Shown here piece after piece: positions 3,324-17,212 of a stretch of DNA of 64,000 bases (position 1 is its first letter; each line of letters starts with the position of its first letter). The notes under the pieces are model-generated. The model saw only the letters and a list, made by a program, of their open reading frames with translations, searched no databases and was not told where the DNA came from. This DNA is from an uncultured Candidatus Saccharibacteria bacterium (GTDB lineage Bacteria; Patescibacteriota; Minisyncoccia; Phycocordibacterales; JACOZG01): NCBI GenBank assembly GCA_964361825.1, contig CAYICB010000001.1, positions 30,644-94,643 of the forward strand, given 5' to 3'. Made by a program: the position numbers and the translations under genes.

Positions 3324-4323
3324 GCGCAACACTTGCTGAATCCAACACCTGCTCAAGGCCCACAAAGGTGGTAGGAGAATTAATTTCTAAAGACGAATTG
3401 TAGCCAGCGAGCGACCAATCAAGCGCGTAATTGCCCTTATATTTGAAACCAGAGTTTGAATTGGTTTTATTAATCGGCCCCGAGAGCGTGAGGCGATAAA
3501 TGAGGTGATCATTGCGGCCAATCCAAATTTCCCCTTGAGGCAACTGGAGATTGTCGAGGACGGTCTCCAACTCCCCTGTTTCCAGTGGCGTATTGGCAGA
3601 AACTAATTTAAGCGCTTCAATCACCAAACCCTTAAGCGCCGCTCGACTAGGCACAAAACTATAGTGATAAGTTGGCACGCCCTCGAGAGTCTCGAGAGGC
3701 AAGCGCGCCGTGATCTCAATTAAGCCTGATTGAGTAAAAAGTTTCTTCAGGTCCACTTGATCAGAGAGTTTGATCCATTGTTCTTTCCAAGGTTCGAGGT
3801 CAAACAAGGTAATGGCTGGGACCTCACGCAAACGAAGATAGAGATCGGCATCAACCAAACGCAAATCCGCTTGCAATCTAAGACGACTGGGCACAATAGG
3901 ATTGGCGGGCAGGCCATAAGCCGAGAGTGACCAACTTTGCGCCAAGCGATGCGCCGGCGCATAAACACTGTCGCCGCCCACCTCAAGATTAAAAACCAGA
4001 GAATCAGAGGCCGAGGGCGACTTGGGCGAATCGCTGGCCCCGCCCTCGAGCAAAAGCTTTTCTCGCGAGAGCGCCAAACGCAAGTGGCCAGTAGAATGCG
4101 CCGAACTCACCGCGCCTTGAGCCGTGAGCATTTTGGCCAAGATCAACTCTGGTGGCTGCAGTCGCGGCCAAAAATAAAAGTAACCGCTCGCGCCAAGCGC
4201 CGCCAAAACGAGGAGAAAAAAACCAATGAGCAAAAGCTTGGGCGCTTGGCGCGGCTCTTGCTCGGGCAAAGCCGACATAATCTTAACCGGATCAAAATCA
4301 AACTTAGGCATTGGGTCTACCAT
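3313..4323 (-). CDS. hypothetical N-terminally membrane-anchored protein
   Basis: Start chosen at the internal Met (MVDPMPKF...) because the longer ORF overlaps the divergent gene. A TM segment PKLLLIGFFLLVLAALGASGYFYFW follows, then a Pro/Ala/Ser-rich linker. Confidence 0.45.
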   Translation of the reverse strand: MVDPMPKFDFDPVKIMSALPEQEPRQAPKLLLIGFFLLVLAALGASGYFYFWPRLQPPELILAKMLTAQGAVSSAHSTGHLRLALSREKLLLEGGASDSPKSPSASDSLVFNLEVGGDSVYAPAHRLAQSWSLSAYGLPANPIVPSRLRLQADLRLVDADLYLRLREVPAITLFDLEPWKEQWIKLSDQVDLKKLFTQSGLIEITARLPLETLEGVPTYHYSFVPSRAALKGLVIEALKLVSANTPLETGELETVLDNLQLPQGEIWIGRNDHLIYRLTLSGPINKTNSNSGFKYKGNYALDWSLAGYNSSLEINSPTTFVGLEQVLDSASVAPNP

Positions 4324-4825: not shown

Positions 4826-4897
4826 GCTCCCGTAGTTCAACGGATAGAACGCAAGATTGCGGATCTTGTAATCGAGGTTCGATTCCTCGCGGGAGCA
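4826..4897 (+). tRNA. tRNA-Arg (anticodon GCG)
   Basis: Hand-folded cloverleaf. Acceptor GCTCCCG/CGGGAGC, D-arm GTTC..GAAC, anticodon stem CAAGA/TCTTG with loop TTGCGGA, and T-arm CGAGG-TTCGATT-CCTCG. No encoded CCA. Confidence 0.75.
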
Positions 4898-11377: not shown

Positions 11378-11379
11378 AG

Positions 11380-11452
11380 TCCGCCCGGGGGGAATCGAAC
11401 CCTCGACCGTCTGCTTAAAAGGCAGCTGCTCTACCAACTGAGCTACGGGCGG
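11380..11452 (-). tRNA. tRNA-Lys (anticodon UUU)
   Basis: Reverse complement CCGCCCGTAGCTCAGTTGGTAGAGCAGCTGCCTTTTAAGCAGACGGTCGAGGGTTCGATTCCCCCCGGGCGGA folds as a cloverleaf. Acceptor CCGCCCG/CGGGCGG, anticodon loop CTTTTAA, T-loop TTCGATT. There is one G-A and one A-C mismatch in the stems. Confidence 0.7.
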
Positions 11453-13008: not shown

Positions 13009-13803
13009 CTAGAGATCAAGGGTCACACCAACCGGCGCATGATCCGAACCCAGCACTTCACCCAAGATAAACGCTTTTTTCACCTTATTTTTCAGCTTCT
13101 CGCTGACCCAAAATTGATCTATCCGCCAGCCCACATTACGGTCGCGGGCATGCGTTTTCTGGTCCCACCAACTATATTCTACCTTCTCCGGATGGAGCAA
13201 ACGAAATGAATCGGTAAAGCCCGCCGCCACAAATTTGTCGAGCCAAGCGCGCTCTATCGGCATAAAGCCCGAGTTTTTCTCATTCTCCTTCGGTCGCGCC
13301 AAATCAATGGGGAAATGAGCGGTGTTTACATCACCGCCGAAAATAATATTCTTCCCTTTCTTAAGCAAAGATTTATTGTACTCGAGAAATTCATCATAAA
13401 ATTTGAGCTTATAGTTTAGCCGCTCCTCGCCCGAACCGCCATTGGGAAAATAAATGTTTTGGTAAATAAAGTCGCCAAAGTCGAGCTCGATCATCCGACC
13501 CTCGCGGGTGAGAATGCTGGAGTAGCCAGACCGCGGATTATCGCCAAAATCCTTGGTAAACTTCTTCGGTTTTTCTTTAGTATAAACCCCCACGCCGCTA
13601 TAACCCTTCTTCTCTTTCTCCAAGTCCCAATAAGCGATGTAACCATCGGGGTGCGTCAAAGCCGCGCTCAACTTGATTTCATCATCAATCTTCACCTCCT
13701 GCAAACCCACCGCATCAGCTTTACTCTCGGCCAACCACTTGGGAAAACCCTTCTTCTCCGCCGCCCGAATCCCATTCACATTCCACGAGATAAAAGTCTT
13801 CAT
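13009..13803 (-). CDS. xth: exodeoxyribonuclease III (AP endonuclease)
   Basis: MKTFISWNVNGIRAAEKKGF...LQEVK and the C-terminal SDHAP motif. Confidence 0.9.
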   Translation of the reverse strand: MKTFISWNVNGIRAAEKKGFPKWLAESKADAVGLQEVKIDDEIKLSAALTHPDGYIAYWDLEKEKKGYSGVGVYTKEKPKKFTKDFGDNPRSGYSSILTREGRMIELDFGDFIYQNIYFPNGGSGEERLNYKLKFYDEFLEYNKSLLKKGKNIIFGGDVNTAHFPIDLARPKENEKNSGFMPIERAWLDKFVAAGFTDSFRLLHPEKVEYSWWDQKTHARDRNVGWRIDQFWVSEKLKNKVKKAFILGEVLGSDHAPVGVTLDL

Positions 13804-13866
13804 TGGGCCGATTGTAGCATAAGATTTGATCTTGAGTTAAAAACAAAATCATGTTAGTTTGTAAAC

Positions 13867-14106
13867 ATGACCAAAGCTAAAGTCCTCAGTGAAAAAATTA
13901 ATTTAACTGCCCGAGTCTTCAAAGAAGGAAAAATGTATGTGTCTCACAACCCAGAACTAAATGTGGCGAGTTGTGGCAACACCGCCGAAGAAGCAACGCT
14001 TAATCTCCGTGATGCCGTGTCTGGTTTTCTTAAATCGGCTAATAAATTAGGAACTTTAGAAGAAATTCTTGAAGAAAAAGCCTTCACGCGAGTATTTGTT
14101 GTTTGA
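13867..14106 (+). CDS. HicB/UPF0150-family antitoxin-like small protein
   Basis: Motif YVSHNPELNVASCGNTAEEATLNLRDAV matches the UPF0150/HicB N-domain pattern (Y.A.vPdLpgc.tqG.T.EEAl.N..EA). Its 3' end overlaps the RT gene 3' end by 23 bp, convergently. Confidence 0.55.
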   Translation: MTKAKVLSEKINLTARVFKEGKMYVSHNPELNVASCGNTAEEATLNLRDAVSGFLKSANKLGTLEEILEEKAFTRVFVV

Positions 14107-15067
14107 GTTTAAAACTATTCCCCCACCCCAGCAAACCCAAATACGAATTAATCACCGCCGGTTCTGGTTTCTGGGTCAGTCTTTTCAACATTCTCTTCTT
14201 CGTCACTGTTCTTAACACCCGATGATCGGGAAAGTGAATCCAACCGAGAAAATCAACACCAGAGGCAAGAGTCTGAATGGAAATTTTCTTCGGGTGCATG
14301 GAGAGCTTGAGTTTATTCCTCAAGAAATCTTGCATGAGCGGCAAAATCTGTTCTAGATATGCACGATCAGGGGACACAACCACAAAGTCATCGGCATAAC
14401 GGACATAATATTTTATTTTAAGCTTGTGCTTCACGAACTGATCAAACTCGTTCATGTAAATATTTACAAACAGTTGCGAGGTGAGATTGCCGAGTGGAAG
14501 ACCCACACCGTTTCTGCCCGAATTGAAGCTACCGAGAACAACAGAGAGAAGCCAGATAATATCTTGATCCGGAATGTATTTGCTTATAATCACAAGCAAA
14601 GTGGTCTGATCAATGTTTGCAAAAAACTTCTTGATATCGCATTTTAGCGCCCAAGTAGCTCTTGTGTTATTTCGCGAGATGATGTCGGTAAATTGTTGGA
14701 AACGCTTAAGCGCCCGGTGCACCCCCTTGCCGATTTGGCAGGAATGAGAATCTGAAATAAATGTCTTAGTGAAAAACGGAGAAAGCATCCGGTGCAAAGC
14801 ATGGTGAAGCAACCTGTCGCGCACACTTGCCTTGTGAATATCGCGTGGTTTGGGATCGGAAATTTTAAATGCCTGATATTTTGAGTGTGAATATGCCTTA
14901 GCAACAAGCTCGTGATGAAGCGAGACTATGTTTGTCATCAAGTTTCGCTCGAACATCTGCACATCTTGGCGGGCTCGCTTGCCACGCACGAATTCTTTCC
15001 ACGCCTTGAGAAGATTCTCGAGCGAGATGATATCATCATGTGTATGTTGAAAAATAATTTTGGGCAT
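14084..15067 (-). CDS. DGR reverse transcriptase
   Basis: RT motifs present: CDIKKFFANIDQ (motif 3), GLPLGNLTSQLFVNIYMNEFD (motif 4, with the DGR-specific [ILV]GxxxSQ), YVRYADDFVVV (YxDD), and a C-terminal GLLGWGNSFKLKQ. 327 aa. Confidence 0.9.
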   Translation of the reverse strand: MPKIIFQHTHDDIISLENLLKAWKEFVRGKRARQDVQMFERNLMTNIVSLHHELVAKAYSHSKYQAFKISDPKPRDIHKASVRDRLLHHALHRMLSPFFTKTFISDSHSCQIGKGVHRALKRFQQFTDIISRNNTRATWALKCDIKKFFANIDQTTLLVIISKYIPDQDIIWLLSVVLGSFNSGRNGVGLPLGNLTSQLFVNIYMNEFDQFVKHKLKIKYYVRYADDFVVVSPDRAYLEQILPLMQDFLRNKLKLSMHPKKISIQTLASGVDFLGWIHFPDHRVLRTVTKKRMLKRLTQKPEPAVINSYLGLLGWGNSFKLKQQILA

Positions 15068-15074
15068 AAAGATG

Positions 15075-15105
15075 GTCAGTCAGTCAGTCAGTCAGTCAGT
15101 CAGTA
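15075..15105. repeat. tetranucleotide microsatellite (GTCA)x7.5
   Basis: gtcagtcagtcagtcagtcagtcagtcagt(a) lies 8-38 bp upstream of the RT ATG (15065-15067) and 16-46 bp upstream of the avd TTG start (15121). Confidence 0.95.
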
Positions 15106-15120
15106 AAGATTTTACCCGTT

Positions 15121-15474
15121 TTGAGTAAGGTCAAGAGTGGATATCTAACATGGTACAAATTTTATCAAGAGATCCCTAAAACACACCGATACTCACTCGG
15201 CCAGCGCACAGACAACCTGTTTGTCGAAGTGATTGAAGCAATTTCGGCGGCGAGTTTTCTCTCGAGAGAGGAAAAGCAACCATATGTGAGACTTGCAATA
15301 AAGAAACTCGATACTCTACGAGTACTTCTCATGATTCTCTGGGAGACAAGATCTTTTGACGACAAGAAATACATTGCCCTATCGGTCATTCTTGGTGAGG
15401 CCGGGAAAATGCTCGGTGGTTGGAATGGCCAGCTTACAAAACAAAACTCTCCTACAAAAGCAGGAGAGAAATGA
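15121..15474 (+). CDS. avd: Avd-like accessory variability determinant (four-helix-bundle protein)
   Basis: 117 aa. IPKTHRYSLGQRTDNLFVEVIEAI and the C-terminal LGEAGKMLGGWNGQ...KAGEK resemble Bordetella phage BPP-1 Avd (IPRKHGVAREMFLK ... IAEVGRILGSW...GQAGK). TTG start; the frame stays open upstream through the microsatellite to a GTG at 15079. Confidence 0.6.
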   Translation: MSKVKSGYLTWYKFYQEIPKTHRYSLGQRTDNLFVEVIEAISAASFLSREEKQPYVRLAIKKLDTLRVLLMILWETRSFDDKKYIALSVILGEAGKMLGGWNGQLTKQNSPTKAGEK

Positions 15475-15480
15475 AGAGAG

Positions 15481-15607
15481 TTGCGGGACAACAAACGCGA
15501 ACCCGCCGTTGTCGTTCCACTCGTCGTCTGGCCTGTCGTAGTTGGCGTTCAGCCAACCACCATCGTCGTTGCGGTTCGCGTTGAGCAAGTTCGGATCGCC
15601 GTCGGAA
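15481..15607 (-). repeat. DGR template repeat (TR)
   Basis: 127 bp, near-identical to 15980-16112. At every one of the 14 mismatches this copy has T on the + strand (A on the - strand). It encodes an Asn-rich reading (NANRNDDGGWLNANYDRPDDEWNDNGGFAFVV). Confidence 0.85.
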
Positions 15608-15934
15608 ACACACAGGAAACCATCAGTGTCACTGCCCCTCGAATACTCTTAGGGCTGTATCGAATCCGGCATCGTAATGCCTTAGTCTCCCGTGCCAAGT
15701 ATCTTCGTTTTTTAACAGTTACATGCATCACTCTATCTGAAGCCATGACCGCAGATAATCTCGATGCACGGATACTGGGTTCGGTAGCGGGAAGCCGTAA
15801 CCGCCCGCATATTCACCTACTACCATTTAAATTTTAGCATAATAAAACCCCATGCCAGATTGCATGAGGTTGGAGTTTGATACGCTGTGTCTCCCGAGCG
15901 TTTGGCAATTGCTTGCCGTAGGACTAAGGTCCAA

Positions 15935-15961
15935 GGAACCAAGCGCTAGGGCTTAGGTTCC
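15935..15961 (-). promoter_or_regulatory. GC-rich stem-loop immediately 3' of the VR (candidate DGR homing hairpin)
   Basis: GGAACCAAGC-GCTAGG-GCTTAGGTTCC, about 19 nt beyond the VR end on the - strand. Confidence 0.5.
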
Positions 15962-15973
15962 AAGGTATCAGTA

Positions 15974-16693
15974 CTACTTTTGCGGGACAGGGACAACAAA
16001 CGCGAACCCGCCGCTGCCGTTCCACTCGCCGTCCGGCCTGTCGTAGTGGGCGCCCAGCCAACCACCACCGTCGAGGCGGTACGCGTGGAGCAAGCGCGGA
16101 TCGCCGTCGGAATCCTTGATGGGTTCGTGCATCGTGACGATGTACCACAGACCCATCTGTTCCAACTGCTCGTCCGTGAATGTGTCGCGGATCAGGCAGG
16201 CGACCTCCCAATGAGGCTTGACCCAGCCCTTCTTGTCGGCGGCCGCACGAATCTTCTTCGTGATACGGTCACTGATCTTCTGGCCCGGGCGCACCACGAT
16301 GTTGTAGGTGACGCCATTGGTCGGCGCTTCGCTTGCGCGACGCAGCACTTGACGTGCATAGTCGCCGATTCTCCAACCGCGACGCTCGAGGTACTGTTCC
16401 CACTGTTCGCGGGTAAAGCCATTCGAGGTGAGCGTGAAGTGGATGTTGCCCTCATCATCGACGGTCCATGCGGTCGGTGTCGGCGCGGTCGTCGGAATGG
16501 CAGCTCCTTCGCTTTCGGGAACTTCACCGGGTTGTTCATCAACTATGCCCTGCAAAATGTCAACAACCTGTTCTGGGTCTCGTTTTCCATCAAGAACCAG
16601 TTTGCCAACATTTGCCTGAAGCTTCCATAGTCTCTCGTACACGTTGTTGCTCACAACCATCTCCTTTTTGAAGAACTTACACCCGCTACTCAC
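15974..16693 (-). CDS. DGR target (variable) protein with C-terminal C-type-lectin/FGE-like VR
   Basis: 239 aa. The C-terminal 44 codons (LLHAYRLDGGGWLGAHYDRPDGEWNGSGGFAFVVP) are the VR. There is no obvious signal peptide. The gene is markedly more GC-rich than the neighbouring RT and avd genes. Confidence 0.8.
   Translation of the reverse strand: MSSGCKFFKKEMVVSNNVYERLWKLQANVGKLVLDGKRDPEQVVDILQGIVDEQPGEVPESEGAAIPTTAPTPTAWTVDDEGNIHFTLTSNGFTREQWEQYLERRGWRIGDYARQVLRRASEAPTNGVTYNIVVRPGQKISDRITKKIRAAADKKGWVKPHWEVACLIRDTFTDEQLEQMGLWYIVTMHEPIKDSDGDPRLLHAYRLDGGGWLGAHYDRPDGEWNGSGGFAFVVPVPQK
15980..16112 (-). repeat. DGR variable repeat (VR)
   Basis: Matches the TR except for 14 substitutions, all at TR-adenine positions on the - strand. 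A 6-bp GGGACA duplication lies at the 3' (IMH) end. The VR ends 4 nt before the target stop codon. Confidence 0.85.
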
Positions 16694-16855
16694 AGGTGCT
16701 TCCGGAATCTGCCGGATCAGTTAGCAAGGAAATCTCGCTAAATCTGGCCCAAGGTTAGCATATGCCCTGACAAAAGTCAAGCAAAAGTGGGAAATATGGC
16801 TTAAAATAAGGTTATTTTAACCGTAACTTACCTTCTGGTTTCTTGAGGAAATTTC

Positions 16856-16886
16856 AGTTATCGACAAACTGTCGATAACTTGTCGA
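16856..16886. promoter_or_regulatory. palindromic operator-like site GTTATCGACA-AAC-TGTCGATAAC plus an extra TTGTCGAT half-site
   Basis: Perfect 10-bp inverted repeat, about 165 bp upstream of the DGR target start and about 45 bp upstream of a small + ORF (16924-17133). Confidence 0.4.
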
Positions 16887-17212
16887 TGGTTCAAATCACA
16901 ACTCCACTTCTTGCACAAATTTTATGAAATGGCATAATCGTTCTATGTCTAATTCAATAGAAAAGCCAGTCATCTTGGCTCGAAAGGAAATTGAGTCTGT
17001 TCTTCGGCGTTACCAACTCAATTGGGAGGAAGTCCTGCCCGATCAAGATAATTCGATTTGGAAAAAATTCAAACCGGAAGCTAAAAAAGTCCGTCAAGAA
17101 CTGCTCCGCAAATTTTATCCGTCGCTTCAATAAATGCCGCGGTGCTACCGGTAAAAATCGTAACGCCACAAAATTTTTTTCAACAATATTGGATTTGATA
17201 CTGGGTTTTACT

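Follow-up and report, generated by a model that had tools for sequence, protein, structure and literature searches.

In Haemophilus influenzae, tetranucleotide repeats mark a set of contingency genes, namely lic1A (CAAT), lgtC (GACA), and modA (AGTC or AGCC), and the AGTC unit of modA is a cyclic permutation of GTCA. In Salmonella, slippage within the 6-bp repeats of mutL toggles global mismatch repair. For diversity-generating retroelements (DGRs), little is known, to our knowledge, about how mutagenesis is regulated, and diversifying a working protein without control carries a cost. The initial annotation of the locus described here knew of no description of the combination of a tetranucleotide tract and a DGR, and none was found in the full-text literature library searched: it yielded no work that connects DGRs to homopolymers or other simple repeats, to slipped-strand mispairing, to phase variation of the element itself, or to a frameshifted avd. 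A large DGR survey likewise mentions no comparable hypermutable tract (PMC5758913).

This study employed a 64-kb stretch of DNA from an uncultured groundwater Patescibacterium (hereafter, the window), in which a (GTCA)7.5 tract lies between the divergently oriented genes for the DGR reverse transcriptase (RT) and its accessory protein Avd. Judged from this sequence and from related loci, the tract is probably a slipped-strand frame switch located in the 5' coding region of avd.

The DGR cassette and its GTCA tract

The RT is encoded on the minus strand and avd on the plus strand. The features of the cassette are as follows:

14084-15067, minus strand: DGR reverse transcriptase, 327 aa (RVT_1, E=4.9e-22; LGNLTSQ at 192-198, YADD at 224-227)
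15075-15104, plus strand: (GTCA)7.5 simple sequence repeat (TRF, shuffles, and window scan)
15106-15474, plus strand: conserved Avd body (K-I-L-P-V-L-S-K-V-K...), bAvd four-helix bundle
15485-15607, minus strand: template repeat (TR), 123 nt (TR/VR comparison)
15974-16693, minus strand: DGR target gene, 239 aa, no Pfam match, contains the VR
15990-16112, minus strand: variable repeat (VR), 123 nt, at the 3' end of the target gene

The window DGR is genuine: it combines a DGR-type RT, an adenine-specific TR/VR pair, and an Avd gene adjoining the RT. TR and VR differ at 14 positions, and 14/14 of these fall at TR adenines. The RT begins with MPKIIFQH, and since this N-terminus is conserved in relatives as M[PS]KIIFQH, the RT start is placed at ATG 15067. 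The match of the avd ORF to PF22296 (bAvd) is marginal (E=8.2e-10; 39.6 bits, the cut-off being 40) and starts at residue 11 of the ORF as read from TTG 15121; for 1506 Avd homologs, a PF22296 assignment is precomputed and the protein is named as a four-helix-bundle protein.

Several other elements were observed around the cassette. On the minus strand, 17 nt separate the TR end from a downstream hairpin with a 9-bp stem followed by TTTTGTTTTG (15447-15468), which also overlaps the stop codon of avd, and a promoter-like TTGGCA-16-TACGAT (15671-15698) is found upstream of the TR. Taken together, the two elements suggest that the TR is not co-transcribed with the RT but gives a separate RNA of approximately 200 nt, whose end would fall within the 3' end of avd, opposite to the avd strand. 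A further terminator-like hairpin (10-bp stem, 15846-15871, minus strand), which follows the VR and the stop codon of the target gene at a distance of about 100 nt, could be the terminator of the target gene or a GC-rich inverted repeat as found downstream of the VR in other DGRs. At the far end of the RT gene, a 79-aa ORF without a Pfam match (13867-14106, plus strand), which is also called in the second assembly of this locus described below, overlaps the RT 3' end convergently by 23 nt. Neither tRNA-Arg(GCG) (4826-4897, plus strand) nor tRNA-Lys(TTT) (11379-11452, minus strand) adjoins the DGR, and no Rfam family was detected in 13800-17000, where the one match (E=0.5) was a chance one.

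The tract at 15075-15104 is a perfect tetranucleotide array of 30 nt (TRF score 60, 100% matches), as the initial annotation had stated. A 16-nt GTCA match occurred in 0 of 100 dinucleotide-preserving shuffles of the window, and a search of the 64 kb for 2- to 8-nt units repeated 4 or more times over 12 nt or more gave just one other repeat, (ATT)4 at 4322; C runs of 7 or more are absent from the window. The array is perfect, it is long enough to be hypermutable, and its unit length is not divisible by 3; the units found in relatives are only 1, 2, 4, or 7 nt long. Read on the avd strand, the tract is free of stops in all frames (VSQS/SVSQ/QSVS), and on the RT strand, as (TGAC)n, it contains TGA in every frame. 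The distances claimed for it were right as well: 7 nt separate the tract from the RT ATG (the complement of 15065-15067) and 16 nt separate its end from TTG 15121. The GTG that had been placed at 15079 does not exist, since 15079-15081 reads GTC. The avd frame does stay open upstream through the repeat, from 15070, where TAA 15067-15069 closes it, but it offers no ATG, GTG, or TTG before 15121.

An ENA contig from the Hainich aquifer with an identical RT (L001) matches the window at 100% over 4485 bp, tract and VR included. It and the window represent one population and not independent alleles, and the VR is identical in both assemblies. Because this contig carries the identical sequence, the GTCA allele is not an accident of assembly. 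In an exact-product look-up, the Avd product had no database record, and the RT was found on just one further contig, identical to the window.

Tract position and avd start in related loci

The RT belongs to a very large clade of Patescibacteria (8000 matches at E<=1e-30), in which the nearest non-identical RT is 77% identical. The related loci were the best 160 of more than 1100 matches in genomes and metagenomes, and more were added via look-ups of identical RTs. In all but one of the 160 fetched loci, avd and RT are divergent and 20-100 bp apart. The comparison with homologous DGRs that had been proposed for the locus was carried out, and it found a long simple repeat at the identical position in 127 of the 143 non-redundant loci (89%), in relatives whose RTs are just 55-77% identical to that of the window. 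These long tracts comprise 110 poly-C runs of 8-14 (mode 9-10, avd strand) and 17 tracts with 2-, 4-, or 7-nt units in at least 4 units; 12 of the remaining loci have a short tract and 4 have none. The motifs are C, CA, CT, GCCA/AGCC/CAGC, GTCA, AACC, ACGA, and the heptamer AGCAATC, none of which has a unit length divisible by 3 or a stop on the avd strand, and within the clade of the window the tracts measure 12-78 nt. In the rest of the 143 loci, amounting to 671,852 nt, there are only 4 poly-C/G runs of at least 8, and a single repeat of another kind reaches 16 nt or more. On comparative grounds, the tract position bears the signature of selection for repetitiveness itself, because the position is fixed, the motif turns over, and the unit length is never a multiple of three. 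That the tract is an assembly or sequencing artefact can practically be dismissed: repeats can be mis-assembled, but the 30-nt tract is shorter than one read, it is the same in two assemblies, and homologous tracts occur in about 140 loci from many independent studies.

Directly 3' of the tract, the motif [RK][IL]LP[VL]L is conserved as protein, with Leu and Arg/Lys codons that vary synonymously; one relative (L003) differs from the window by five synonymous changes within eight codons downstream of the tract. Since the Leu codons vary and coding sequence reaches the tract, avd is expected to start upstream of it. Start candidates on the downstream side were considered and set aside. At the position homologous to TTG 15121, the closest relatives have TTA, CTA, or CTG, i.e., an ordinary Leu codon. 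ATT 15109 corresponds to the start that NCBI assigned in a relative, but other loci have ACT or CTT at this site, and the K/R codon that precedes it is conserved. Lastly, the TTG in the TTTTGCC motif just 3' of poly-C is one of six Leu codons seen at that site (TTA, TTG, CTG, CTA, CTT, and CTC).

Upstream of the tract, the frame whose codons coincide with those of the RT read in antisense (frame X) always begins with ATG-TTG-AAA-AAT-AAT-TTT-GGG-CAT or a variant thereof. The features predicted for the window from this comparison are as follows:

15028-15036, plus strand: predicted avd extended -10 (TG-a-TATCAT), antisense in RT codons 11-14, ending 7 nt before ATG 15044
15044-15046, plus strand: predicted native avd start ATG (frame X), the reverse complement of the RT His8 codon CAT
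15044-15106, plus strand: predicted frame-X product of the present allele, MLKNNFGHKDGQSVSQSVSQ followed by TAA 15104-15106, out of frame (OFF)
15060-15074, plus strand: candidate frame-Y alternative starts TTG 15060-15062 and ATG 15072-15074, which an allele of 6.5 or 9.5 units would bring into the avd frame

An ATG is present at the site equivalent to 15044 in 119 of 143 relatives, and it leaves a trace in the codon usage of the opposite gene. The RT His8 codon is CAT in 116 and CAC in 4 cases, compared with 827:615 at other conserved His codons (57% CAT, p=5e-22); the bias is also strong relative to RT positions 2-30 with an NNY codon, i.e., one with T or C as its third base (923:435, 68% T, p=2e-14). 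Further synonymous sites are skewed nearby: the third base is T in 94% of cases at RT codon 12 and C in 83% at codon 13, whereas T makes up 68% in the local baseline. Together, the skewed sites spell TGnTAnnnT-N7-ATG on the avd strand. The window contains each part of this motif (TG at 15028-29, TATCAT at 15031-36, and ATG at 15044-46), and over 143 relatives the -10 logo counts are T-16 137, G-15 106, T-13 136, A-12 118, T-11 130, and T-8 139. We infer from this pattern that 15028-15036 is the avd promoter, of the extended -10 type, in a motif that also encodes conserved RT residues. By the same motif, with the same overlap with conserved RT residues, the avd mRNA would be leaderless from ATG 15044, as the distance of 7 nt between -10 and ATG fits the expectation for such an mRNA.

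The comparison places the GTCA tract inside the 5' coding region of avd, between the start and the conserved ORF body, with a coding strand free of stops. The 53 bp that had been annotated as the divergent region between the two genes are probably not intergenic, since the comparison puts the avd start within the RT gene, at ATG 15044-15046 of the opposite strand. Database Avd proteins of the clade begin with MLxNNFGH and are often called with a frame-X N-terminus, e.g., MLENNFGHKDSASQPASQPGKILPVL... and MLELNSSHNYKVTPPPRILPVL...; Y-frame N-termini (MGIKIAPASQ...) are also present among database Avd proteins that are mutually at least 90% identical.

Annotation pipelines treat this gene unevenly. 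No avd was called in L001 (2095-3000) or in seven contigs with the RT protein P0018 (L172-L178), many of the Avd proteins in databases have been shortened to 103-108 aa, and the NCBI start of P0241 (MCC6290782.1) is an ATT codon ('MLPVL...'). Because avd is often missed, truncated, or given a non-canonical start, DGR catalogues under-call Avd in this clade.

Tract length, reading frame and alternative readings

Over all loci, approximately 35% have an upstream ATG in frame with the Avd body, which is not distinguishable from 1/3, and a signal emerges only after the loci are split by tract length. With tracts sought no further than 33 nt from the Avd anchor, 13 of 16 short- or no-tract loci (81%) have an upstream ATG in frame, as compared to 43 of 127 long-tract loci (34%; Fisher p=3.7e-4). 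The loci are phylogenetically related and these statistics are not fully independent, but the result is kept when the loci are collapsed to 142 RT clusters at 90% identity (12/15 vs 41/127, p=4.9e-4).

The tract-free relatives (L087/L088/L090, L188-L193, L085, and L156) have non-repetitive Pro codons (CCG CCA) in place of poly-C, and in L069 an ATG directly precedes the LPV motif. All of these loci are in frame, with a length that is invariant across six identical-RT contigs. By their sequence they look like 'locked-ON' versions, and short or absent tracts are mutationally stable.

These observations bear on a reading in which there is no switch, with Avd starting 3' of the tract (at TTG 15121 or ATT 15109) and the repeat being a neutral, drifting microsatellite or spacer. 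It is in line with the ORF listing, which gives TTG 15121 as the first start, with the late beginning of the bAvd match, at residue 11 of the ORF so read, and with the intact DGRs of the roughly two thirds of long-tract loci that are out of frame with any upstream ATG. However, neither codon is conserved as a start, residues upstream of both are conserved as protein, and a neutral repeat is not expected at one position in 89% of loci, where it is about a thousand-fold enriched over the flanks. Nor would it yield the CAT bias at His8 or the rule that short tracts are in frame, and this reading is quite unlikely.

Length variation is seen directly among relatives with identical RTs. In the GROS21 contigs (ENA, L179-L181), which share an identical RT protein and flanks, the tract is C10, C11, and C9, respectively, with one allele per sample within one study; the set covers each reading frame, and C10 alone gives MNKLNSSHRPNITPPPRILPVLGKV.... 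In a second identical-RT group, 8 contigs have the in-frame C10 and 2 have the out-of-frame C11, and a further group contains (CA)n alleles one unit apart. In another case, a C9 and a C10 allele have 250-nt flanks that are 100% identical. When two assemblies differ by one base in a homopolymer, a sequencing error may be the cause; this is less likely for the 2-nt (CA) difference and the SNP-linked C10/C11 difference, which speak against such errors as the general account. Within the identical-RT groups, no tract-length variation was found in six no-tract contigs or in seven (CCAG)3 contigs. Likewise, in an Avd cluster of at least 90% identity, the N-termini differ by 4-aa steps (SQP vs SQPASQP) and by frame (X vs Y). 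The core idea of the initial annotation, a slipped-strand contingency switch on a DGR, is supported by these data, as the tract is near-universal and its length differs between otherwise identical contigs of relatives.

In the window itself, the consequences of tract length were derived in silico. At the observed 7.5 units, the frame of ATG 15044 ends at TAA 15104-15106 and the frame of the Avd body has no Met; the window allele would hence be OFF, and the gain of one unit would restore full-length Avd. At 8.5 or 5.5 units, the predicted product is a full-length Avd, M(C)MLKNNFGHKDGQSVSQ...KILPVLSKVK..., and at 6.5 or 9.5 units, just TTG 15060 and ATG 15072 are in frame. The frame-shifting of an N-terminally extended Avd, as it had been claimed, thereby stands as to the behaviour of the frame, and the start shifts from GTG 15079 to ATG 15044-15046.

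The proposed frame switch would operate as follows. Transcription of avd would begin from the extended -10 (15028-15036), antisense in RT codons 11-14, and translation from ATG 15044-15046, antisense of RT codon 8, probably on a leaderless mRNA. The ribosome would read the first 8 codons of the RT antisense, then the tract, and then the Avd body (KILPVL..., from 15106). Since the unit is 4 nt long, every gain or loss of a unit would shift the Avd body to another frame: alleles of 8.5 or 5.5 units would be ON, the allele of 7.5 units OFF, and alleles of 6.5 or 9.5 units would depend on internal starts only (TTG 15060, ATG 15072). About one third of the slippage states would be ON and two thirds OFF. 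RT without Avd should not support mutagenic retrohoming, and for this reason the tract would make hypermutation heritably and reversibly ON or OFF. Switching at the window locus itself is deduced from its sequence and from the behaviour of its relatives, and the dependence of DGR activity on the ATG-15044 form of Avd is likewise deduced.

Leaky initiation at TTG 15121, or re-initiation after TAA 15104-15106, is possible. In-frame loci make up just 34% of those with a long tract. Alternatively, Avd may be produced independently of the frame, initiating at TTG 15121 in the window or at a TTG after the tract (present in about half of the poly-C loci). If Avd were made in this manner, the tract would be a modulator and not a strict switch.

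Slippage could also act at the level of expression rather than DNA, with RNA polymerase or the ribosome restoring the frame in some transcripts and the tract serving as a dosage tuner that keeps Avd low and constant. Transcriptional slippage occurs in other bacteria at homopolymer lengths of 9-11, most relatives have homopolymers of 9-11 C, and the frame distribution is uniform (X 15, Y 22, Z 14). We consider this reading very improbable, since slippage of this type is not expected on 4- or 7-nt units such as GTCA, length differences between identical strains are seen at the DNA level, and short tracts are held in frame.

The remaining question is whether the tract acts on the RT. In a transcriptional switch, it would set the spacing in the promoter or 5'-UTR of the RT (and perhaps of avd), and not the avd frame; this is the mode of action of the poly-G/C tracts of Neisseria porA and opc and of the (TA)n tract that separates the divergent promoters of hifA and hifB. 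The tract ends just 7 nt from the RT ATG, intergenic lengths are fairly narrow in poly-C loci, and 22 poly-C relatives read polyG-T(100%)A(77%)nnnT(91%)-N7-ATG on the RT strand, which is -10-like and has the tract in the spacer. In the window, however, no -35/-10 pair flanks the tract, and positions -13 to -8 from the RT ATG read ACTGAC; a scan of the window found no promoter-like pair spanning 15068-15120 on either strand, and the tract, 30 nt by itself, is longer than the total of about 17 bp between the hexamers of such a promoter. The candidate -10 TAAAAT (15114 to 15109, RT strand) with TTGACC 14 nt upstream was rejected, as its spacing is too short. Moreover, the 12-78-nt tracts in the clade of the window far exceed any promoter spacer, and a transcriptional switch leaves the short-tract in-frame rule, the absence of units divisible by 3, and the 97% CAT at RT His8 unexplained. 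Taken as an account of the tract in place of the frame switch, it is unlikely.

The suggestion that the tract alters promoter spacing for the RT accordingly finds no support in the window, where no hexamers flank the tract, and it may apply to the poly-C relatives alone, on account of their TAnnnT. In these relatives (e.g., L018, L033, and L077), the RT-proximal 13 nt read tract, then TAnnnT-TA-nnn-GT-ATG, with 7 nt between hexamer and ATG. This arrangement suggests a leaderless RT whose putative promoter spacer contains the tract that sets the avd frame, and a spacing effect may come in addition to the frame switch there.

Implications and comparison with described systems

For the clade of Patescibacteria as a whole, the chances are about even that DGR hypermutation is a contingency trait, in which a hypermutable tract in the avd/RT overlap toggles Avd and retrohoming at random and heritably, so that the DGR is silent in most cells and a minority diversify their target protein, and that in poly-C relatives the tract may also set RT promoter spacing and couple both genes. 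If the frame switch is true, it would amount to two-tier bet-hedging, in which a random, heritable ON/OFF layer is placed over a targeted hypermutator. It would explain why many metagenome DGRs appear intact yet inactive, and with it the reach of phase variation by repeats would go beyond host-adapted pathogens and take in ultra-small bacteria that are free-living or episymbiotic. The locus would also be a compact dual-coding design, as the first 14 codons of the RT gene would carry, on their antisense strand, the predicted promoter and start of avd. Counts of tract alleles in reads, with the ON fraction set against VR diversity, would test the switch directly, and the GROS21 alleles (L179-L181) are a ready-made set for relating the two.

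Among described systems, the tetranucleotide genes of H. influenzae (lic1A, lgtC, and modA) resemble the proposed switch in having a perfect 4-nt repeat a few codons past the ATG, where slippage shifts the frame ON or OFF, and in having a repeat that is open in all frames of the coding strand. They differ in that the host here is an uncultured groundwater Patescibacterium and no host-adapted pathogen, that the affected gene is Avd, an accessory of targeted hypermutation, and not a surface or restriction-modification gene, and that the start codon and predicted promoter are antisense in the partner RT gene. Since the tract is the only one of its kind in the 64 kb, a genome-wide set of phase-variable genes is absent here; and, unlike in H. 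influenzae, switching at the window locus is predicted from sequence.

The coding poly-G/C tracts of Campylobacter jejuni and Neisseria meningitidis are matched by most relatives, which have C8-C14 in the avd 5' coding region, with ON and OFF lengths coexisting among otherwise identical strains. In contrast, the window has a tetranucleotide unit, the gene class differs, and the position is conserved across RTs that are 55-77% identical. The (TA)n repeat of H. influenzae hifA/hifB and the tracts of N. meningitidis porA/opc offer a different likeness, i.e., a divergent pair in the manner of hifA/hifB with a repeat between the starts and, in poly-C relatives, TAnnnT beside the tract on the RT strand. 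The window, however, lacks flanking hexamers, its tract exceeds spacer length, and the frame evidence points to a translational effect.

As regards the element itself, the Bordetella phage BPP-1 cassette (mtd-avd-TR-brt) shares an RT with I/LGxxxSQ, an Avd four-helix bundle, and an adenine-specific TR/VR pair at the 3' end of the target. Here, avd is inverted, with a predicted head-to-head overlap of 24 nt with the RT, the TR lies beyond avd on the RT strand, and a hypermutable tract interrupts avd. Salmonella mutL is alike in concept, being a slippage-prone repeat that toggles mutation-generating capacity, whereas the object of the toggling here would be an RT-driven diversifier that is site-specific and acts on one target gene. 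The proposed mechanism would be of the classical slipped-strand contingency type, and it would differ in its Avd target, its Patescibacterium host, the conservation of the tract position across lineages, and the antisense placement of the start and promoter.
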